NCBI RefSeq assembly: GCF_030013595.1
Contig: NZ_CP122768.1
Origin: Escherichia coli
Lineage (GTDB): Bacteria > Pseudomonadota > Gammaproteobacteria > Enterobacterales > Enterobacteriaceae
Direction: 5' to 3' (one strand)
DNA length: 64,000 bases
Shown: positions 8,496 through 57,408 of the stretch, piece after piece
Layout of the letters: every line of letters begins with the position of its first letter
How positions within the stretch are numbered: position 1 is the stretch's first letter
Notes under the pieces: model-generated
Seen by the model: the letters and a program-made list of their open reading frames with translations, nothing else
The model's database searches: none
Told to the model about the DNA's origin: nothing
Position numbers and translations under genes: made by a program

Positions 8496-8867
8496 ATGAC
8501 CCTACGCAAGATTCTGGCACTCACCTGCCTGCTGTTGCCGATGATGGCTTCCGCACATCAGTTCGAAACCGGTCAGCGAGTGCCGCCGATTGGCATTACC
8601 GATCGGGGCGAGTTGGTGCTTGATAAAGATCAGTTTAGCTACAAAACCTGGAACAGCGCGCAGTTAGTGGGAAAAGTGCGGGTACTGCAACATATTGCTG
8701 GTCGCACCTCTGCAAAAGAGAAAAACGCGACGCTGATTGAAGCGATTAAATCAGCGAAGTTACCGCACGATCGTTACCAGACCACCACCATTGTTAACAC
8801 CGACGACGCGATTCCGGGTTCAGGGATGTTTGTGCGCAGCAGTCTGGAGAGTAATAAAAAGCGGTAA
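8496..8867 (+). pseudogene. ytfJ: ytfJ, truncated: reading frame runs into the IS1 terminal repeat and stops (123 codons versus an expected ~184)
   Basis: MTLRKILALTCLLLPMMASAHQFETGQRVPPIG...SSLESNKK then R-stop, where the final codons (cgg taa) come from the IS1 end ggtaatgactcc; expected C-terminal third absent. Confidence 0.8.
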
Positions 8868-8877
8868 TGACTCCAAC

Positions 8878-9381
8878 TTACTGATAGTGTTTTATGTTCA
8901 GATAATGCCCGATGACCTTGTCATGCAGCTCCACCGATTTTGAGAACGACAGTGACTTCCGTCCCAGCCTTGCCAGATGTTGTCTCAGATTCAGGTTATG
9001 CCGCTCAATGCGCTGAGTATAACGCTTGCTGATAACGTGCAGCTTTCCCTTCAGGCGTGATTCATACAGCGGCCAGCCATCCGTCATCCATACCACGACC
9101 TCAAAGGCCGACAGCAGGCTCAGAAGACGCTCCAGTGTGGCCAGAGTGCGTTCACCGAAGACGTGCGCCACAACCGTCCTCCGCATCCTGTCATACGCGT
9201 AAAACAGCCAGCGCTGACGTGATTTAGCACCGACGTAGCCCCACTGTTCGTCCATTTCAGCGCAGACAATCACATCACTGCCCGGTTGTATGCGCGAGGT
9301 TACCGACTGCGGCCTGAGTTTTTTAAGTGGCGGAAAATCGTGTTGAGGCCAACGCCAATAATGCGTGCACTGGCGCGACAT
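8878..9381 (-). CDS. insB: IS1 transposase InsB (167 aa reading frame; expressed as InsAB' by frameshifting)
   Basis: [64 protein letters not shown]... overlapping insA in -1 frame. Confidence 0.93.
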
Positions 9382-9575
9382 CCGACGCCATTCATGGCCA
9401 TATCAATGATTTTCTGGTGCGTACCGGGCTGAGAGGCGGCGTAAGTGAACTGTAGTTGCCATGTTTTACGGCAGTGAGAGCAGAGATAGCGCTGATGTCC
9501 GGCGGTGCTTTTGCCGTTACGCACCACCCCGTCAGTAGCTGAACAGGAGGGACAGCTGATAGAAACAGAAGCCAC
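9300..9575 (-). CDS. insA: IS1 protein InsA (91 aa)
   Basis: [43 protein letters not shown]... zinc-finger/HTH InsA. Confidence 0.93.
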
Positions 9576-9789
9576 TGGAGCACCTCAAAAACACCATCAT
9601 ACACTAAATCAGTAAGTTGGCAGCATCACCATAGAAGTAAACTATCAAAAAACGCTCATTATTAAAATATAACTTATTAGCAATTGAATTTTTGCACTTT
9701 AAATACAATCTCTTTTTATTTATAACTTTTTAGGTTGGGAGAAATCAGGATGGCAGAATCAGGAAATACACTGTTTCTGCCATCTGAAT

Positions 9790-19329: not shown

Positions 19330-20538
19330 TCAGGCTGTCGCCTGAATCATTTCGGTGGGTTCCTGCTTCAACGAGCGGCCTGACTGCACCATCTCTCCAC
19401 AGGCAAGAACGGCGTGCCCCGCCGCTAAAATGTTACGAGCGCCATTTACATCGGCGTTCGCTGTATATCCACATACCTGGCATCTGAATTTAATTTGTGA
19501 CAGGCGATTTTCTTTCGCTGTATGACCACAGCACGCGCAACGCTGGCTTGTGTACGCTGGCGGAACAGCAAGCACCTGACCGCCACGCCAGAGCTGCTTG
19601 TACTCAAGCTGGCGGCGCATTTCATACCAGCCCTGATCCAGTATCGAACGGTTTAAACCTGATTTTGCCCGGACATTGCGCCGCGGCTGGCTGACCGTAC
19701 CCGCTGCTGACTTTGACATGTTGCTGACCTTCAAATCCTCAATGACTATCATTGCGTGGTTTTTGCTGACGGTCGTTGTGACTTTGTGAAGGTAGTCCCT
19801 GCGGATATTTGCGATACGGGAATGCAGTCGCTGTATTTTGCGTTTCTGCTTCTGCCAGTTATTGCTGAATTTGACCTTGCGGCTTAACTGTCGCTGAAGT
19901 CTCGCCAGCTTCTTCTGTTTTTTCTGAAAACTGTTTACAGGCTCAAAGACTGTGCCATCTGACAGCGTGGCGAGTTTAACCACGCCAGCATCCAGCCCGA
20001 CCATTGATGCTGAAGGATGAACCGGAGTTGATACTTCACTTTCTGTCTGAATACTGATGTACCACTTACCGCAGGACTGGCTGACCGTGACATTTTTCAC
20101 AACACCCGTGACCTGACGGCTATTCCGGTAGCGCATCCAGCCCAGTTTCGGCAGAAAAATACGGCTGTTTTCCTGATAGAGCTTAACGCCCTACGGGTAG
20201 CGGAATGCATCATTCTGTCCCCGCTTTTTGAATCGGGGAAAAGCAGCCCGCTTCTGGAAGAAGTTTTTGTAAGCCCGCTCAAGGTCTTTCAGTGACTGTT
20301 GCAATGGCTGTGACGGGGCATCTTTAAGCCATTGCGTTTCAGTGGCATTTTTCCACTCAACCAGCCAGGAAGCCATTTTCCCGTAAGGGATGTATTTATT
20401 ACCGGCCTCATGATTCTCATTCTGAAGCGCCAGAGCACGATTGAAAACGAAACGACATGCGCCTGCGAAGCGCCTCATTTCACGCTCCTGTTGACCACCG
20501 GGTCTTAACTGGAATTTAAATGCCTGTCGTCGTTTCAC
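19330..20538 (-). pseudogene. tnpB: tnpB (IS605 OrfB / TnpB RNA-guided nuclease family), ~402 codons interrupted by one in-frame TAG at 20191-20193
   Basis: N-terminal ORF (GTG start) VKRRQAFKFQLRPGGQQE...AFRYP, then TAG, then in the same frame GVKLYQENSRIFLPKLGW-MRYRNSRQVTGVV...; C-terminal part has RuvC-like region and CxxC...CxxC zinc finger ([39 protein letters not shown]). Confidence 0.8.
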
Positions 20539-20545
20539 AGGTCAA

Positions 20546-21000
20546 ATGATACTTTGGTCTGTGAAAAAAGAAACCTATATCCGGCGTGGAAGGTATTGTG
20601 TTTTCCTGATGCATGTTCACCTGGTCTTTGTCCCAAATACCGACGCCAGATTTTTGACCATGACGCGACAGAAAAACTACGCACTTACTTTTCAAATGTA
20701 TGTGCTGATTTTGAAGCTGAACTGGTTGAAATGGATGGCGAACCAGATCACGTCCATTTGTTAATTAAATATCCTCCCAAACTGGCGATATCCAGTCTGG
20801 TAAACAGCCTCAAAGGCGTATCGGGTAGGTTACTGCGACGAGATCGACCAGATATTGCAGTCAGGTATTACTACAAAGGCGTTTTGTGGAGTCCTGGCTA
20901 TTTTGCCAGTAGCTGTGGAGGTGCGCCAATATCCGCCATCCGTCAATCCATTGAACAACAGCAAACACCTGGTCAGGTGGAAAACCGCGCCGTATATCCC
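20546..21000 (+). pseudogene. tnpA: tnpA (IS200/IS605 Y1 HuH transposase), frameshifted; 3' limit uncertain
   Basis: Frame 1 MILWSVKKETYIRRGRYCVFLMHVHLVF, then a 1-nt frame change in a T-run (~20620-20630) into CPKYRRQIFDHDATEK...DHVHLLIKYPP (HuH motif)...[16 protein letters not shown]; a Ser occupies the position where family members have the catalytic Tyr. Confidence 0.7.
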
Positions 21001-21357
21001 CGCCCTGAAGGACGGGGTTTTACGGCACACCGGATAAACCAGGCCAAGCGTATGCTGGTTGATCAAATAATATCCCCCAAGCGCAGCAATATTAATATAC
21101 ACCTGCAATGGGTCGATATCTGGCTTAAAAATATTGTGTTTCTTCCCTTCATCCAATAAGGATTCCATTAACTGCAAGTGCGCATGATTAATTTCTAAGA
21201 GACGCTGTGATTTTACATAATGCACACCTTTACTTTGGTTTTCACTATGCACAATTTTTAAAAACCAAGGATTAGCAATATAATATATCCTAGGTAAAAT
21301 CGATGATTTTTTCAATGGCTTTTTGTGGCTGGTTAACCTGCTGATTAACAAACGCAC
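20830..21357 (-). CDS. Hypothetical ORF (175 codons) starting in the low-GC islet and reading into the IS element end; possibly a ytfA-like gene remnant
   Basis: ORF track 175 aa [17 protein letters not shown]...; roughly the first 108 codons lie outside the IS hairpin at ~21017, the rest is antisense to tnpA. No recognisable domain by eye. Confidence 0.3.
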
Positions 21358-37772: not shown

Positions 37773-38471
37773 TTACTCGCCCTGTTGGCGTTGCAGTCTT
37801 GCTAATACATCCTGGGCGCTACTTTTATTGCTACCGCCTATTCCGGCTTCCGCCAGCTTTTCATCAAGATCGCGACCGTCTGCGACTTTTTCCAACTGTG
37901 CAGCAGCATCCAGGCGAGCCTGACGTTCGGCCTGACGCGTTTGCAGGCGTTTTAAGGATTCTGCCGCTGTCGAAACGCTGGAAGATGCGCCAACGGTAGA
38001 GGTCGTTACAGCCTGTTGTGCACGCTGCATGGCTTCAGTAGCTTTAACGACTTCCATTTGCTGCTCAAACTGAGCGATACGCTGCGCTGTCGCTGTAACT
38101 GCTTTTTCCACGCCATCACGAGAGACTTCCAGATTCGACAACACTTGCTCTTCAGCGGTAATGAGATTCTCAAGGCGCGCGATTTCTTCAGCAACTTCGT
38201 TAATCAACGACGGATTAACGTTCTTGCTTAACGCTTCCAGCGCACGGGCTTCCAGACTGGCTTTGCGCTCACGTAAATCTTTCAGCTTATCGTGACTTAA
38301 TTTCACCCGCGCCAGCAGATCAACGCGAGATTTTCCGGCTTTATCGAGTTCAGCTTTAGCGTCACGAATATGCTGTTCCAGCATGCGCACGCCCTGGGTT
38401 TCTTCAATGGATTCTTCCGCCTGAGAGATAAACGATTTCCCCAGCGTAAATAAACTTTTTAAAATTCCCAT
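37773..38471 (-). CDS. yjfJ: PspA/IM30 (ESCRT-III-like) family protein YjfJ, 232 aa
   Basis: MGILKSLFTLGKSFISQAEESIEETQGVRMLEQHIRDAKAELDKAGKSRVDLLARVKLSHDKL... long coiled-coil with PspA-like N-terminus. Confidence 0.88.
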   Translation of the reverse strand: MGILKSLFTLGKSFISQAEESIEETQGVRMLEQHIRDAKAELDKAGKSRVDLLARVKLSHDKLKDLRERKASLEARALEALSKNVNPSLINEVAEEIARLENLITAEEQVLSNLEVSRDGVEKAVTATAQRIAQFEQQMEVVKATEAMQRAQQAVTTSTVGASSSVSTAAESLKRLQTRQAERQARLDAAAQLEKVADGRDLDEKLAEAGIGGSNKSSAQDVLARLQRQQGE

Positions 38472-38489
38472 AAATACCCGTCCTTGTAA

Positions 38490-38891
38490 TTAGAGTGAAT
38501 ATTCTTCTGTAATTTCAGCCAGATCCAATGCGTTATCTACCAGCGAGGTTATCTCAAGCAGGATATCTTCAAGAGAAGATTTAAGCGATAACGCCCCGAA
38601 AACAATGTAATACTCTTCATGTTGCACGCTGGAGATCCCTACCGATGACAACGGCATCATCTTCTGATTTCTTAATAAGAAGGTATTAAATTCATCTGGA
38701 TTGCTGATACTACTTACCGGACAAATAAAGGTTTCGATAATCATTTGGCGGGAAGTAAATAGAATATTGATTTGCAAATCGCCATAATCATTCATTTTAA
38801 TAATTAATGCGTTCTCGCCATTTGTTACATCAATATTTTGTTCAGGTACAGTTTGCAGCGCCGTCGCCAGCGCCAACGGATTCCATGTCAT
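38490..38891 (-). CDS. yjfI: DUF2170 protein YjfI, 133 aa
   Basis: MTWNPLALATALQTVPEQNIDVTNGENALIIKMNDYGDLQINILFTSRQMIIETFICPVSSI... Confidence 0.85.
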   Translation of the reverse strand: MTWNPLALATALQTVPEQNIDVTNGENALIIKMNDYGDLQINILFTSRQMIIETFICPVSSISNPDEFNTFLLRNQKMMPLSSVGISSVQHEEYYIVFGALSLKSSLEDILLEITSLVDNALDLAEITEEYSL

Positions 38892-38959
38892 ATATTATTC
38901 CATATAAATTAAGTTTAAATATTAATAAAATGAATATTTGCAGTACGTAATTATCTTAC

Positions 38960-39680
38960 CAGCTATAGACAAATAAATATCCTCCGGCATAGCCGGAGGT
39001 TTTTCAAATGCGCCTGTAAGGCTCTGTTACCAGCCGCGCCCTAACAGGCGCATACGATCTGACATTTGCATTCAACTTCGTTACTTACGGCCCGTAAACG
39101 GGCTGCCCGGATATGGAATCGATAACTGCTCCCCCATTTTATCCTCTTCAAGCTGGTGCTTTATGTAGTCCTGTATCTTCGCCGTGTTCTTACCCACCGT
39201 ATCGACATAGTACCCTCGGCACCAGAACTCCCTGTTTCTGTATTTGAATTTCAAATCCCCAAACTGCTCGTAAAGCATCAGACTGCTTTTCCCTTTCAGA
39301 TATCCCATAAAGCCGGATACGCTCATTTTGGGTGGGATTTCCACAAGCATATGGATATGATCTGCGCAGCACTCTGCTTCCAGAATCCGTACGCTTTTCC
39401 ACTCACACAGCTTTCTCAAAATACTGCCTATCGCCCTACGCTTCTCTCCGTAAAACGCCAGTCTTCGGTATTTCGGCGCAAAAACTATGTGATATTTACA
39501 GTTCCAGCGGGTGTGCGCTAAGCTCTTTTCGTCCCCCATTGGGACCCCCTTTTGATTTCTTGTTTGACACTTGCAGTTGCCAGACCGCAAGGTGTTTTAA
39601 CAAATCAAAAGGGGTTTTAATAACTGGCTCAAAGCTGAAAGCTTTCCGGAACCCCCAGCCTAGCTGGGGGTTTTCTGTGC
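38960..39680 (-). mobile_element. IS200: IS200-type insertion sequence (single tnpA, ~0.7 kb); boundaries approximate
   Basis: tnpA reading frame with IS200-type protein sequence; hairpins near both ends (cccccagcctagctggggg at 39651-39669; cctccggcatagccggagg at ~38969-38991); lies between the rlmB terminator and the yjfI start. Confidence 0.7.
39081..39539 (-). CDS. tnpA: IS200 Y1 (HuH) transposase TnpA, 152 aa from MGDEKSLAHTRWNCKYHIVFAPKYRR
   Basis: ORF 39081-39590; HuH motif HIHMLVEIPP, conserved PKYRR and C-terminal Tyr region (KIQDYIKHQ). Confidence 0.88.
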   Translation of the reverse strand: MGDEKSLAHTRWNCKYHIVFAPKYRRLAFYGEKRRAIGSILRKLCEWKSVRILEAECCADHIHMLVEIPPKMSVSGFMGYLKGKSSLMLYEQFGDLKFKYRNREFWCRGYYVDTVGKNTAKIQDYIKHQLEEDKMGEQLSIPYPGSPFTGRK

Positions 39681-39712
39681 ACAAAAAAAAACCATCCAAA
39701 TCTGGATGGCTT
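39681..39712 (-). terminator. Rho-independent terminator downstream of rlmB
   Basis: Minus strand: gccatccagatttggatgg stem-loop followed by ttttttttt (plus-strand aaaaaaaaa-ccatccaaatctggatggc). Confidence 0.75.
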
Positions 39713-39729
39713 TTCATAATTCAGAGGAA

Positions 39730-40461
39730 CTAGCTGCGCTGTCGCACCGCTTCAAATAAGCAAATCCCTGTCGCCACAGAAACGTTCAGGGAAGAAACGC
39801 TTCCTGCCATTGGGATGCTGATCAACTCGTCGCAATGTTCACGAGTCAGGCGACGCATACCTTCACCTTCCGCGCCCATCACCAGTGCCAGCCGTCCGGT
39901 CATTTTGCTCTGATAAAGTGTATGATCCGCCTCACCTGCCGTACCGACGATCCAGATATTCTCTTCCTGCAACATACGCATGGTGCGCGCAAGGTTAGTC
40001 ACCCGAATCAGCGGAACACTTTCTGCCGCGCCGCAGGCTACTTTTTTCGCCGTGGCGTTGAGCTGTGCGGAGCGATCTTTCGGCACAATCACCGCATGAA
40101 CACCAGCGGCGTCCGCGCTACGCAGGCACGCGCCGAGGTTGTGCGGATCGGTTACGCCGTCGAGGATCAGCAGGAACGGTTGATCGAGCGAAGCGATCAG
40201 ATCCGGCAGATCGTTTTCCTGATACTGCCGTCCTGGCTTCACACGGGCGATAATGCCCTGATGCACGGCACCGTCGCTTTTCTCGTCGAGATACTGACGG
40301 TTCGCCAACTGGATAACCACGCCCTGGGACTCAAGGGCGTGAATCAGCGGTAACAGACGTTTATCTTCACGGCCTTTTAAAATAAAGACTTCCTGAAAAC
40401 GTTCAGGGGCGCGCTCCAGCAGGGCCTGCACTGCGTGGATGCCGTAAATCATTTCGCTCAT
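39730..40461 (-). CDS. rlmB: 23S rRNA (guanosine2251-2'-O)-methyltransferase RlmB, 243 aa
   Basis: [47 protein letters not shown]... SpoU/TrmH family. Confidence 0.93.
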
Positions 40462-40551: not shown

Positions 40552-42993
40552 TCACTCTGCCACTTTTTTCTTCGCCGCACGCTTCGCTTTGGTCGCTGCA
40601 GCTATTTTCTGCGTTTTCGCCGATGGCTTTTTCGCTTTTCTCGCGTCTTTCTTCGCCGCTTTCGGCTTCGTTTTTTTCTCGCCGCGGAAGGCGCTGTCTG
40701 GCTCAAAGTTTACCTTTTTACCGACCTGACGACGCTTGCCGCCTTTTTTGCCTGCATCGCCTTTTTTCGCTTTCTCGCGCGCCGTTTTACCGACGTTGCG
40801 CGGTGCGCGTTCGCTGGAGATCAGGCTAAAGTCGATTTTACGCTCGTCCATATTAACCGCTTCGACGCGAACTTCCACGCGATCGCCCAGGCGATAAGTC
40901 TGGCCGCTGGATTCACCCATCAGGCGTTGCCCTACCTGGTCAAAGCGATAGTAGTCATTGTCCAGCGAAGAGACATGGACCAGACCATCAATGAACAAGT
41001 CGTCCAGACGGACGAAGAAGCCAAAGCCAGTGACGCTGGAAATTACGCCTTTAAAGACGTTACCTACCTGGTCGAGCATGAAGTCACACTTCAGCCAGTC
41101 AGCTACATCGCGTGTTGCTTCGTCGGCACGACGTTCCGCCATCGAACAGTGCTGACCCAGTTGCAGCATCTCTTCCATCGAATAATGGTAACCGCCGGTT
41201 TCAGTAGTGTTGCCCTGATGCCCCTGCTCTTTCGCCAGCAGATACTTAATGGCGCGGTGCAGCGTCAGGTCAGGATAACGACGAATCGGCGAAGTAAAGT
41301 GCGCATAGGACTGCAATGCCAGACCGAAGTGACCACGGTTTTCCGGATCGTAAATCGCCTGTTTCATCGAGCGCAGCAGCATGGTTTGCAGCATTTCTGC
41401 GTCAGGACGATCGGCAACCGACTCCAGCAGCTCCGCGTAGTCACGCGGTTCCGGCTTGTTACCGCCCGGCAATTCCAGCCCCAGCTCCGCCAGCACTGAA
41501 CGGAAAGAGGTAATTGCTTCGGTGCTCGGCTTGTCGTGAATACGGAACAGTGCTGGTTCCTTGGCTTTCTCAACGAAACGCGCCGCCGAGATATTCGCCA
41601 GAATCATACACTCTTCAATTAATTTGTGTGCGTCGTTACGCTGGGTCTGTTCGATACGTTCAATACGGCGTTCAGCGTTGAAAATGAACTTCGCTTCTTC
41701 GCTCTCAAATGAGATCCCACCGCGTTCTTCACGGGCTTTATCCAGCACTTTATAGAGGTTATGCAACTCTTCGAGATGCTTAACCAGCGGGGCGTACTGC
41801 TCGCGCAGATCCTGATCGCCCTGCAGAATATGCCAGACTTTGGTGTAGGTCAGACGTGCGTGAGAGCTCATTACCGCTTCATAGAATTTGTAGCCAGTCA
41901 GGCGGCCTTTCGACGAAACCGTCATCTCGCACACCATACACAGGCGGTCTACCTGCGGGTTGAGCGAACACAGACCGTTAGAGAGCACTTCCGGCAGCAT
42001 CGGGATAACCTGCGAAGGGAAGTACACCGACGTACCACGGTTACGCGCTTCTCTGTCCAGCGGTGTTGGCGGACGCACATAGTAGCTGACGTCGGCAATC
42101 GCGACCCATAAACGCCAGCCGCCGCCGCGTTTTTTCTCGCAGTAAACTGCATCGTCAAAGTCACGGGCGTCTTCGCCATCAATGGTGACCAGCGGTAAAT
42201 CGCGCAGATCGACACGGCCCGCTTTTGCTTCTTCCGGCACTTCTTCTTTCAGCCCGGCAACCTGTTGCTCAACGGCCTGCGGCCAGATATACGGAATTTC
42301 ATGGGTACGCAGAGCGATATCAACCGCCATGCCGGTGCCCATATTGTCGCCAAGTACTTCGACGATTTTACCCACCGCTTTGGTACGGCGAGTCGGGCGT
42401 TGGGTCAGTTCAACTACGACCACAAAGCCCATCCGCGCGCCCATGATCTGATCGGGCGGGATTAAGATATCGAAGCTCAGACGGCTATCGTCAGGAACCA
42501 CAAAGCCGACGCCCGCTTCGGTAAAGTAGCGACCAACAATCTGGCTGGTTTTTGGCACCAGTACGCGGACAATACGCGCTTCACGACGACCTTTACGGTC
42601 AGCACCCAGCGGCTGCGCCAGCACCTGATCGCCATGAATGCAGGTTTTCATCTGCTCGCTGGAGAGATACAAATCATCTTTACGCCCTTCAACCCGCAGA
42701 AAGCCGTAGCCATCACGGTGGCCAATAACGGTACCTTTCACCAGGTCGAGGCGTTCCGGCAGCGCATAGCACTGACGACGAGTGAAGACCAGTTGACCAT
42801 CGCGCTCCATCGCGCGCAGGCGGCGACGCAGGCCTTCAAGCTGCTCTTCGCCTTCAATGTGCAGTTCTACCGCCAGCTCATCACGGCTGGCCGGTTTTTC
42901 ACGTTTGGTTAAATGTTCGAGGATAAATTCCCGACTAGGGATGGGATTCGCGTATTTTTCAGCTTCGCGTTCCTGGAATGGATCTTGTGACAT
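40552..42993 (-). CDS. rnr: Ribonuclease R (813 aa from [14 protein letters not shown]) with Lys-rich C-terminal tail
   Basis: ORF 40552-43035; cold-shock, RNB and S1 domain sequence, basic K/A-rich C-terminus. Confidence 0.93.
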
Positions 42994-43031
42994 CTCGGTT
43001 CCTCCGTTGTCATCTCTGATGAAGATTTTCG

Positions 43032-43457
43032 TCACTCCACCAGCAATAATTTATAAAGCGGTTGATTCTCTTCAACCAAATCGGCAAGCGTGTAGTTATC
43101 CAGTTCCGTAAGAAAACTTTGCACGGCCTTAGAAAGCGCCTGTTTCAACCGACAGGCAGGTGTAATGTGGCAAAACTCACTGCTGCAATTCACCAGCGAT
43201 AAGGGCTCCAGCTCGCGCACCACATCACCAATACGTATCGCACTCGCCGGTTTACCCAGACGAATGCCGCCATTTTTTCCACGAACAGCAGTCACGTAGC
43301 CGGCACGACTAAGTTGATTGATTATTTTGACCATATGATTACGGGAGACGCCGTAGACGTCAGTCACTTCAGAAATACTGGTCATCCGCCCTTCTGGCAA
43401 TGACGCCATGTAGATCAGCGCACGTAATCCGTAATCAGTGAAACTCGTTAACTGCAC
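43032..43457 (-). CDS. nsrR: NO-sensing Rrf2-family repressor NsrR, 141 aa
   Basis: [70 protein letters not shown]...; 4-nt overlap with rnr start. Confidence 0.93.
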
Positions 43458-56719: not shown

Positions 56720-56988
56720 TTCATCCACAGCTTGTGAATAAAAATAAAAACGCATTGCAATTCAAGACGAATAAAATCGTCAAGTGATCGACTCGACAAA
56801 ACGAAATCTTAATTTTTAACTTATCTATCAATAGATTAAAAAAATACTATTCACCGTGCGAAGTTTCTTTGAAATTAAGATTACGGCCTGAGGCTGTGGA
56901 TAACTCTGTTTACAAGAGTTTGTCAGAGACAACAAAAACCAGCAATAACGCATCGTGTCGCTGTGGATATTTTATTGAGAGAAGAATT

Positions 56989-57064
<76 letters not shown>

Positions 57065-57099
57065 TTGGGTGGTCTGTGCTTTACAGCACTTTCAAATTT

Positions 57100-57175
<76 letters not shown>

Positions 57176-57332
57176 TTAATCTTCGTCTTTCGAACCGCTA
57201 CTGCCTTGGCTGCCTTCACTCACCTTAGTCACTTACTTTTGTAAGCTCCCAAGGATTCGTTCAGTTGCCGCCTTGTCGCAATTCGAAATACTGCGATTGG
57301 GTGGTCTGTGCTTTGCAGCACTTTTCAAATTT

Positions 57333-57408
<76 letters not shown>

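Follow-up and report, generated by a model that had tools for sequence, protein, structure and literature searches.

The extra DNA between rlmB and yjfI in this Escherichia coli window (the whole stretch of DNA that was analyzed, 64 kb in length) is a complete copy of an E. coli isoform of IS200, a member of the IS200 group of the IS200/IS605 family. Positions 38892 to 39729 (838 bp) represent exactly the spacer from the yjfI start to the rlmB stop, but comparison of filled and empty sites reveals a 712-bp insertion, so that the mobile element is confined to positions 38972 to 39683 and does not occupy the whole spacer (Table 1). The element is full length and apparently functional, its activity being deduced from its intactness and from the polymorphism of the site. 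In our opinion, these data are very probably explained by a combination of an intact and recently inserted IS200 copy, a terminator T-tract as its target, mobility of the peel-and-paste type, and a small effect on the host. This is a known element, not a new gene or regulatory element. Copies identical to it over 710 to 712 nt are present in other E. coli genomes, which, together with a 146-bit match to an Rfam family, puts the feature far beyond chance. It is found in a single copy within the window.

Table 1. Features of the rlmB-yjfI region in the window
Feature	Positions	Strand	Evidence or remarks
yjfI CDS	38490-38891	minus	DUF2170, Pfam PF09938, E=5e-44; annotated as yjfI in relatives
Native yjfI upstream region, kept between the IS and the yjfI ATG	38892-38971	minus	Identical in empty-site genomes
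Predicted RpoD hexamers upstream of yjfI	TTAATA 38920-38925; TGGAAT 38897-38902	minus	Genomic-SELEX table, PMC3946193
Right end: hairpin CCTCCGGCTATGCCGGAGG (38981-38999) and 9-nt tail ATATTTATT	38972-38999	minus	Terminator scan, fold
Complete IS200 element, 712 bp, 5'-TGTGCACAGAAAACCCCC...GGAGGATATTTATT-3'	38972-39683	minus	Filled versus empty site comparison
tnpA, 152-aa Y1/HUH transposase	39081-39539	minus	Pfam PF01797
TnpA catalytic codons	H61 39357-39359; H63 39351-39353; Tyr125 39165-39167	minus	Alignment to 2EC2, 2F4F, 2A6M
Inferred art200 antisense sRNA region, ~90 nt, start at IS nt 153/154	39530-39620	plus	Homology only
tnpA 5'UTR stem-loop, IS nt 69-138	39546-39615	minus	Rfam STnc490; function per PMC4513863
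Left-end subterminal hairpin AACCCCCAGCTAGGCTGGGGGTT, IS nt 12-34	39650-39672	minus	Fold -18.7 kcal/mol; Rfam RF01405 positions 1-23
Native rlmB intrinsic terminator: core stem CCATCCAGATTTGGATGG (39692-39709), flanking A/U pairs, T-tract	39684-39715	minus	MFE -16.3 kcal/mol
rlmB CDS	39730-40461	minus	243-aa ORF; Pfam SpoU_methylase and SpoU_sub_bind; annotated as rlmB in syntenic E. coli genomes

The upstream gene is rlmB, whose terminator served as the insertion target, and the downstream gene, yjfI, is the first gene of the yjfI-yjfC cluster; tnpA is co-oriented with both. The first-pass annotation had placed the element downstream of the rlmB terminator and directly in front of yjfI, oriented like the yjfI-yjfC cluster, and the coordinates and strands bear this out. 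It had also noted a second, different member of the IS200/IS605 family in the window. Such a member is indeed present in the form of an IS609-like tnpA/tnpB remnant at positions 19330 to 21159, whose TnpA shows 26% identity to the IS200 TnpA.

The only ORF in the 712-bp element with a family match is tnpA, and there is no tnpB. A database search that could have assigned the product of this ORF outside the IS200 family instead returned the family match: TnpA aligns with positions 2 to 121 of the 121-position Pfam profile PF01797 (Y1_Tnp) at E=7.9e-37 (126.5 bits). Its homologs in PDB include 2EC2 (2.4e-23), 2F4F, 2A6M (3e-19), and 2XM3 (5e-16). The HUH motif H61-I-H63 (in DHIHM) aligns with DHIHL of 2EC2, and the catalytic Tyr125 (in YIKHQ) aligns with the YIEEQ motif of solved IS200-family transposases, in agreement with the earlier description of an intact 152-aa IS200-family TnpA with an HUH motif and a conserved tyrosine. 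The protein is identical to RefSeq entry WP_000502112.1, which is named only “IS200/IS605 family transposase,” while its 96%-identical variant is named IS200C.

The ends of the element were set by comparing filled and empty sites at three positions, rlmB, cspE, and sseA. The residual ambiguity is -2 to +1 nt (right end at 38970 to 38973), the left end being confined to positions 39681 to 39684 by the three filled/empty pairs. The chosen ends agree with the published IS200 numbering, in which the hairpin occupies nt 12 to 34 and the ATG is at nt 145 (PMC4513863). The first boundary model, based on the analogy with IS608, had the element starting with GCACAG (39680) next to an external TTTGT target and its right end terminating with TTTGT; it was ruled out by the cspE and sseA pairs, which permit only a start at 39681 to 39684. 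The element has no terminal inverted repeats (TGTGCACAG... at one end versus ...ATATTTATT at the other), and there is no target-site duplication at the rlmB-yjfI site. Although TGT follows the right end and also represents the first nucleotides of the IS, the nucleotides 3' of the right end vary at sseA, cspE, and osmE and at 46 reconstructed sites (45 of Y. pestis IS1541 and one from Edwardsiella). We therefore treat TGT as a junction ambiguity rather than a duplication and, given the variable 3' flanks of the 46 reconstructed sites, assign it to the element. A general requirement for TG in the 3' flank would fit all 4 E. coli sites but was rejected, as only 5 of the 46 reconstructed sites conform to it.

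The hairpins that had been noticed near both ends of the element were recovered by folding and by a terminator scan. They lie 11 nt from the left end and 9 nt from the right end, and both have 8-bp cores and 3-nt loops of similar sequence. The left-end hairpin, presumably the one recognized by TnpA, is found as an exact 24-mer in at least 120 loci of other species; in IS200, it serves as a bidirectional terminator that shields tnpA (PMC4513863, PMC5435999). The right-end hairpin with its tail (fold of -17.4 kcal/mol) is scored as terminator-like on both strands. This end resembles the host terminators used as targets, and other copies of IS200 and IS1541 are found inserted immediately behind right ends of this kind. 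The left-end hairpin forms part of an IS200-specific regulatory region, together with the Shine-Dalgarno stem-loop of the tnpA 5'UTR and the art200/STnc490 region. The Rfam family STnc490 (RF01405), modeled on the corresponding region of Salmonella IS200, matches the E. coli element over its full length with 146.4 bits and E=2e-31 (gathering score, 56). In the RNA fold of positions 39516 to 39644 (-47.3 kcal/mol), the Shine-Dalgarno sequence AAGGGGG pairs with CCCCTTTT and is thereby sequestered. The coordinates of the art200 antisense RNA were carried over from PMC4513863 with the ATG at nt 145. Several weak Rfam matches (rnk_pseudo, glutamine riboswitch, and reverse-strand STnc490; E=0.2 to 0.9) fell far below the respective gathering scores and were treated as chance.

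Immediately upstream of the IS lies the rlmB terminator, a hairpin followed by T9, with the same sequence in the empty-site genomes. The element landed in the distal part of the T-tract, and the TGT with which the IS begins now provides the ninth T and the GT that comes after it. In this way, the terminator (hairpin, T9, and GT) has been regenerated exactly, and its sequence through T9GT is the same in the filled and empty alleles. The minus-strand terminator scan lists the rlmB terminator in the empty locus but not in the filled window; our reading of this omission is that an extended stem swallows part of the T-run, leaving too few T residues in the tail window.

The first-pass annotation had raised the possibility of altered transcription entering yjfI. 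One form of such a change would be an IS that acts as a mobile promoter or otherwise raises transcription into yjfI. The element does share its orientation with yjfI-yjfC, just 80 bp separate it from the yjfI ATG, and other IS families are generally known to create hybrid or outward promoters (mentioned in 10.1101/2025.07.22.666184). Nevertheless, we consider such activation unlikely. A consensus scan, which in its simple form would miss weak or nonconsensus outward promoters, found no σ70-like site on either strand of positions 38400 to 39900, with 2.9 expected by chance. In the sense direction, the right end consists of a GC-rich hairpin and a T-rich tail, and the published tnpA promoter is intrinsically weak (PMC4513863), while the left-end hairpin stops ~85% of incoming transcripts in Salmonella (PMC5435999). 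Moreover, no new -35 context has been created, as the 12 nt that precede the junction are rich in T with or without the insertion. The same consensus scan of positions 38892 to 38971 yielded nothing, whether the IS was present or absent, and did not locate the native yjfI promoter, for which the SELEX-based hexamers (Table 1) are the sole pointer.

Since the element contributes a pair of terminator-like hairpins, shows no outward promoter in the scan, and leaves the 80 bp adjoining yjfI as they were, it is likelier to be insulating or neutral than activating, and it probably insulates yjfI. The bidirectional left-end terminator and the terminator-like right end would further block read-through from rnr-rlmB into yjfI. 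How much of such read-through occurs is viewed differently by different sources: in E. coli K-12, transcriptome sequencing places the end of a 14-gene operon at rlmB (PMC4161252), whereas some databases annotate an nsrR-rnr-rlmB-yjfIJ operon (PMC3946193, PMC3534368). Should yjfI truly be fed by read-through, its expression could be measurably lowered by the insertion, which would then not be neutral. The insertion leaves intact both the rlmB terminator and the 80 bp nearest to yjfI, and with no promoter supplied the consequence for the host would be expected to be small.

The age of the insertion can be judged from the distribution of filled and empty sites. Of 5,426 complete E. coli genomes searched, 5,425 match the locus, and only 4 of these have a filled rlmB-yjfI site; all 4 carry a different isoform, IS200C. 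The comparison with the uninterrupted region of relatives that had been proposed earlier thus shows a true insertion of 712 bp at a site that is empty in nearly all relatives, and a search for fixed presence of the same DNA without IS ends gave the opposite picture. In a near-isogenic strain, the junction at the empty site is seamless. Two pig isolates whose flanks are essentially identical to those in the window have an empty site and carry IS200 in 12 places. In HCP5S3_I2, which has an empty site, the flanks are identical at 2400/2400 and 2394/2395 positions, and identity is 100.0% over a stretch of 23.3 kb; one of its 12 IS200 places holds a copy identical to that in the window over 711/712 nt. 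The existence of such near-identical pig isolates with an empty site and 12 IS200 places argues that the insertion is recent. We favor a gain in the lineage of the window over a loss in its sisters; precise excision in the sister isolates, a known property of the family, is a formally possible alternative to gain. A metagenome scan for the junction between the right end and yjfI found no second instance of this exact insertion; the one contig that matched carries IS200C.

The copy could also have arrived by homologous recombination, on an imported segment in which an IS was already in place at this position, such as one derived from a strain filled with IS200C. E. coli recombines frequently, the window is mosaic relative to VCSW5 (98.6 to 99.2% identity), and IS200 is found at exactly the same position in other E. 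coli lineages. However, the flanks match the empty near-isogenic strain for at least 2.4 kb on each side, and for 23 kb on one of them, and contain no imported polymorphisms. In addition, the window copy differs from every IS200C copy at this site at 27 to 31 of 707 positions, whereas resident copies from the same lineage match it. Import of this kind is thus very improbable. It is hardly credible that the locus holds a decayed relic, or DNA that is old, fixed, or domesticated, instead of a recent mobile copy. IS200 has a reputation for very rare transposition (PMC4513863), and its 5'UTR can yield regulatory sRNAs in Salmonella (PMC5435999). However, all but 4 of the 5,425 locus-matching genomes, near-isogenic strains included, have an empty site; the copy retains an intact ORF, two intact hairpins, and an intact 5'UTR structure; and other copies, one of them in the closest relative, match it at 100% over 710 to 712 nt.

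The choice of a terminator as the target is not peculiar to this copy. Among unique left-end flanks of IS200-type elements from many species, 87 of 116 (75%) are terminator-like, i.e., contain a hairpin and a T-run, compared with 10 of 2000 random positions (0.5%) and 405 of 6714 positions ending in TTGT. The mean MFE of the flanks is -19.0 kcal/mol at left ends versus -8.0 kcal/mol in controls, and a T precedes the insertion point in 45 of the 46 reconstructed sites. These figures are consistent with a site rule under which IS200-type elements would insert a few nucleotides past terminator-like hairpins, in the T-run or at its end, with the target hairpin and T-run resembling the right end of the element itself (hairpin and 9-nt T-rich tail). 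The association of IS200 with terminators has been reported before. Odaert et al. (1998, J Bacteriol 180:178) reportedly proposed stem-loops resembling rho-independent terminators as hot spots for IS1541. Part of this association could stem not from target choice but from the removal of insertions at other sites by purifying selection.

The rlmB site is a hot spot, hit at the same nucleotide and in the same orientation by different isoforms. IS200C occupies this position in four E. coli genomes and one metagenome contig; the flanks of the four genomes differ by 2 to 3%, and their IS copies differ by 0 to 10 nt. Tentatively, and with the chances leaning somewhat against it, we suggest that transposases of the IS200 group select intrinsic terminators on the lagging-strand template (a GC-rich hairpin followed by a T-rich tail of ~5 to 11 nt) as mimics of their right end. 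As far as our search reached, neither this mechanism nor the nucleotide-level rule was found to be established in the literature. If true, such a rule would entail nucleotide-precise insertion into T-tracts, conserved from Enterobacteria to Desulfovibrionaceae and Firmicutes, and would turn certain terminators, that of rlmB among them, into hot spots where different isoforms insert repeatedly and independently of one another. How general and how precise terminator targeting is may merit a dedicated population-scale or biochemical study.

The orientation of the element fits what is known about the family. The GC skew of the window plus strand is -0.047, which makes the minus strand, carrying tnpA, the G-rich one. 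IS200 elements show an orientation bias, with the top strand on the lagging-strand template (PMC3971601), and the placement seen here agrees with that bias, as one consistent copy rather than as proof. By analogy with the peel-and-paste mechanism of IS608 and ISDra2 (PMC2806898), the top strand would leave the donor site as a single-stranded circle, to be pasted into single-stranded target DNA at a replication fork.

The closest well-studied counterpart is IS200 of Salmonella enterica (Lam and Roth 1983; PMC4513863, PMC5435999), which has the same architecture and likewise lacks terminal inverted repeats; its published size is 707 bp versus 712 bp for the E. coli element. IS200C of E. coli (the RefSeq/PGAP name; WP_000526135.1) has the same length and structure and the same rlmB-yjfI position, but its TnpA has 4 amino acid differences (D3N, L27Q, A28V, and G31R) and, along with the nucleotide differences listed above, these indicate that a different isoform inserted here in an event of its own. 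IS1541 of Yersinia pestis (711 bp) shows 86.8% identity over the whole element and has an identical left-end hairpin, whereas its first 11 nt are TGTGCCCAGAA versus TGTGCACAGAA in the window IS200. It likewise sits just past terminator-like hairpins and a T-run, and Yersinia carries tens of its copies.

For the window itself, the extra 712 bp between rlmB and yjfI represent a strain-specific copy of a well-known IS, and annotation of its ends, strand, and internal features is now possible. As IS200 has the reputation of hardly moving at all, the copy is of modest value as a marker of its recent activity in an E. coli lineage associated with pigs, and it provides one more clean example of terminator-directed insertion; the element itself opens no new question.

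More distant relatives and analogs show which of these properties are shared. IS608 and ISDra2, which encode homologous Y1/HUH transposases (the 2A6M and 2XM3 matches, respectively), have in common with the window IS200 the subterminal hairpins, the absence of target duplication, and the lagging-strand-template orientation bias. In contrast, they carry tnpB and insert 3' of TTAC and TTGAT, respectively, whereas the window IS200 is without tnpB and its target is a hairpin and T-run. Group IIC introns also target the stem-loops of intrinsic terminators and insert after a short T-rich motif (TTGT/T; PMC7923331). However, they are retroelements with an RNA-based mechanism that are unrelated to IS200 in sequence, and the likeness is one of analogy only.

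The 152-aa open reading frame between rlmB and yjfI (see the table below) matches the IS200-like transposase domain (“Transposase IS200 like,” Pfam ID PF01797) with an E value of 7.9e-37 over the whole profile. Its H61-I-H63 motif and Tyr125, located in YIKHQ, correspond to the catalytic motifs in alignments with IS200-family transposases of solved structure, and its homologues in PDB include those from Sulfolobus (2EC2, 2.4e-23), IS608 (2A6M, 3e-19), and ISDra2 (2XM3, 5e-16). The Rfam model of the IS200 left end, STnc490 (RF01405), is matched at 39549-39672 with a score of 146 bits (gathering score, 56). These matches bear out the first-pass annotation of an IS200-type copy at 38892-39729, which is exactly the rlmB-yjfI spacer, and the Pfam match goes against the possibility named there that tnpA might belong to another family. 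The element combines a Y1/HUH transposase retaining its catalytic residues, dissimilar ends that each carry a subterminal hairpin, absence of a target duplication, tnpA as the sole gene in ~0.7 kb, an IS200-specific left-end RNA region, and the orientation expected of the IS200 group. It is a known insertion sequence at a new, strain-specific position, a correct but ordinary finding, because its TnpA is already in RefSeq, identical copies of the element are found in many genomes, and the terminator association of such elements has been described before.

Features of the IS200 copy and its surroundings
Feature	Coordinates	Strand	Remarks
rnr	40552-43035	minus	
rlmB	39730-40461	minus	Pfam SpoU methylase
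Left-end (LE) hairpin AACCCCCAGCTAGGCTGGGGGTT	39650-39672	minus	-18.7 kcal/mol
Long 5'UTR stem-loop, Shine-Dalgarno AAGGGGG paired with CCCCTTTT	39546-39615	minus	Fold of 39516-39644
art200 region, predicted	39530-39620	plus	Position transferred by homology
tnpA (152-aa ORF)	39081-39539	minus	Pfam, PDB
Right-end (RE) hairpin CCTCCGGCTATGCCGGAGG and tail ATATTTATT	38972-38999	minus	-17.4 kcal/mol
yjfI	38490-38891	minus	Pfam DUF2170
yjfJ	37773-38471	minus	

The spacer with 500 bp on each side was the query for a search of 5,426 complete E. coli genomes other than the window's own. Matches were found in 5,425 of them, the whole query being covered in only 4; the remaining matching genomes align in two pieces, with ~712 bp absent. 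Comparison with such uninterrupted relatives, proposed in the first-pass annotation, accordingly yields a clean 712-bp insertion rather than DNA fixed in all relatives. The site is also empty in two pig isolates, HCP5S3_I2 and LCP30S3_I5, which are 100.0% identical to the window across 23.3 kb on the rnr side and match it at 2400/2400 and 2394/2395 positions in the 2.4-kb flanks. The genomes of these isolates have 12 IS200 places, one of which, downstream of osmE, holds a copy identical to that of the window in 711 of 712 nt and encoding the identical TnpA (WP_000502112.1). A junction scan of metagenomes returned a single contig, which carries the other isoform, IS200C, and not that of the window. 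These observations are most simply read as a recent transposition in the window's lineage. Precise excision from the sister isolates is formally possible, but a gain on the window's lineage would be required even then, since this site is empty in the population at large. Import of the copy by homologous recombination is unlikely, since no flanking polymorphisms came along with the element.

The empty site reads ...GGATGG-T9-GT-CTATAG... on the minus strand. As the rlmB-yjfI junction alone leaves a 5-nt ambiguity, two further filled/empty pairs with near-identical copies, downstream of cspE and of sseA, were added, and the overlap of the ambiguity ranges at the three sites places the left end at 39681-39684. 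With 39683 as the left end, the element is 5'-TGTGCACAG...GGAGGATATTTATT-3' (38972-39683, 712 bp), which matches the published IS200 numbering (PMC4513863), with the terminator hairpin at nt 12 to 34, the ATG at nt 145, and art200 over the first three codons. IS608-like boundaries, with TTTGT as a target outside the element and again as the last nucleotides of the right end, are excluded by the cspE and sseA pairs. In 46 reconstructed sites (45 of Y. pestis IS1541 and one Edwardsiella copy), the nucleotides 3' of the right end are variable and the left end comes after a T in 45; therefore, TGT is part of the element, which has duplicated no target sequence. At all four E. coli sites compared (window 38969-38971; L002 and the WP_000502112.1-encoding loci L004 and L133), the host DNA directly after RE starts with TG or (T)GG, the trinucleotides being TGT, TGC, TGG, and GGT. 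Among the 46 reconstructed sites, a TG start is seen in just 5; with so few E. coli sites, their pattern could be due to chance, or else this isoform could have a preference of its own.

The intrinsic terminator of rlmB consists of a hairpin at 39692-39709 and a T9 run (-16.3 kcal/mol), and the element is inserted in the distal portion of this T-tract; as first proposed, the copy is downstream of the strong rlmB terminator. Three other E. coli copies examined likewise follow the sseA, cspE, and osmE terminators. A scan of species-representative genomes for the exact 24-nt LE hairpin AACCCCCAGCTAGGCTGGGGGTTC retrieved at least 120 loci (L007 to L126). The hosts among the matches listed include Yersinia, Vibrio, Brenneria, Edwardsiella, and Pluralibacter, and extend across distant phyla to Mailhella/Desulfovibrio (Desulfovibrionaceae), Oxalobacter, Peptococcaceae, a Bacillota MAG, and Saccharibacteria and Elusimicrobia MAGs, although the MAG matches may be contamination. 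Among these matches, the 8 nt separating TGT from the LE hairpin are lineage specific, and a terminator-like hairpin with a T-run precedes nearly all copies. In 87 (75%) of the 116 unique, non-tandem left flanks among the matches listed, a T-rich tail extends to the junction from a perfect GC-containing stem-loop; among control positions, this pattern occurs at 10 of 2000 chosen at random and at 405 of 6714 that end in TTGT. The mean MFE of the 45-nt flanks is -19.0 versus -8.0 kcal/mol. The distance from the stem to the junction, counted to the canonical end, is mostly 7 to 10 nt and thus similar to the length of the element's own RE tail, 9 nt. In tandem IS1541 copies of Yersinia pestis NCTC5923 (L071, L072, L074, and L118), the LE of one copy directly follows the RE hairpin and tail of another, an arrangement that fits the idea that RE resembles a preferred target. 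The terminator association of IS200-type elements is already known, terminator-like stem-loops reportedly having been proposed as IS1541 hot spots by Odaert et al. in 1998. According to a 2025-26 preprint (10.1101/2025.07.22.666184), terminator-like sequences immediately upstream of insertion sequences are most overrepresented for IS200/IS605.

Four E. coli genomes carry IS200C, a different isoform, at the same nucleotide of the rlmB-yjfI spacer and in the same orientation as the window copy. IS200C at this site is represented by L001, L128, L129, L130, and L134, which are from other E. coli and from a single metagenome contig. The IS200C copies are 0 to 10 nt apart over 707 nt and differ from the window copy by 27 to 31 nt, whereas the flanks of the four genomes differ from each other by 2 to 3% and have different variants of the immediate T-run and terminator. 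Divergent flanks around near-identical IS200C copies, together with the distinct isoform in the window, mean that the rlmB site has received at least two independent insertions and that the number is probably higher. For the IS200C set, gene conversion between IS copies together with precise excision is formally another explanation. The presence of near-identical copies at one nucleotide in backgrounds that differ by 2 to 3% makes the rlmB terminator look like a recurrent IS200 hot spot.

The minus strand carries tnpA and the terminator T-run, as well as every gene surrounding the copy. The GC skew of the plus strand is negative (-0.047), and therefore the minus strand is the G-rich strand and the lagging-strand template; tnpA points along the replication fork, the orientation reported for IS200 in Proteobacteria (PMC3971601).

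Both end hairpins have an 8-bp GC-rich core and a 3-nt loop, as would be expected of subterminal hairpins bound by transposases of this family. In Salmonella IS200 (PMC4513863, PMC5435999), the LE hairpin terminates in both directions and blocks ~85% of incoming transcription, tnpA has a weak promoter, translation is repressed ~20-fold by the stem-loop, and the antisense small RNA art200 starts at nt 153/154. The RF01405 match is on the tnpA-sense strand and includes the LE terminator hairpin, while the published STnc490/art200 RNA is antisense to the tnpA 5'UTR (PMC4513863); the match shows conservation of the region and says nothing about the transcribed strand.

Because the element starts with TGT, the hairpin-T9-GT after rlmB is exactly regenerated. 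The 80 bp from the right end to the yjfI ATG are unchanged and contain TTAATA-17-TGGAAT, hexamers put forward on the basis of genomic SELEX (PMC3946193). A promoter scan of 38400-39900 found no sigma-70-like sites, with 2.9 expected by chance, and a terminator scan rated the right end as terminator-like on both strands. K-12 RNA-seq data end the 14-gene yjeF...nsrR-rnr-rlmB operon at rlmB (PMC4161252); other sources, including PMC3946193, group nsrR-rnr-rlmB-yjfI(J) as one unit. On these grounds, we infer that the IS200 copy is best regarded as either neutral or an extra insulator against residual read-through into yjfI, and not as a promoter donor.

As the first-pass annotation had noticed, the window holds a second IS200/IS605 member, an IS609-like remnant at 19330-21159. 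It lies inside a TetR-family gene and comprises a tnpB split into 115-aa and 268-aa pieces (HTH_OrfB_IS605, OrfB_IS605, and Cas12f1-like TNB) and a Y1_Tnp tnpA-like ORF that shares 26% identity with TnpA of the IS200 copy. Since it is also present as annotated pseudogenes in the syntenic strain VCSW5, where RefSeq marks the tnpA-like ORF as frameshifted, the remnant is old and shared. An IS1 copy at 8863-9632 (InsA, 9300-9575; InsB, 8878-9381; minus strand) cuts ytfJ to 123 aa and stands in place of ~1.24 kb of VCSW5 comprising the ytfJ 3' end and part of a hypothetical gene; it is an insertion with an adjacent deletion. Finally, the three tRNA-Gly genes arranged in tandem at 56987-57408, whose spacers are repeated and which give multiple self-similar BLAST matches against the syntenic region, are the normal E. 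coli glyV-glyX-glyY cluster.
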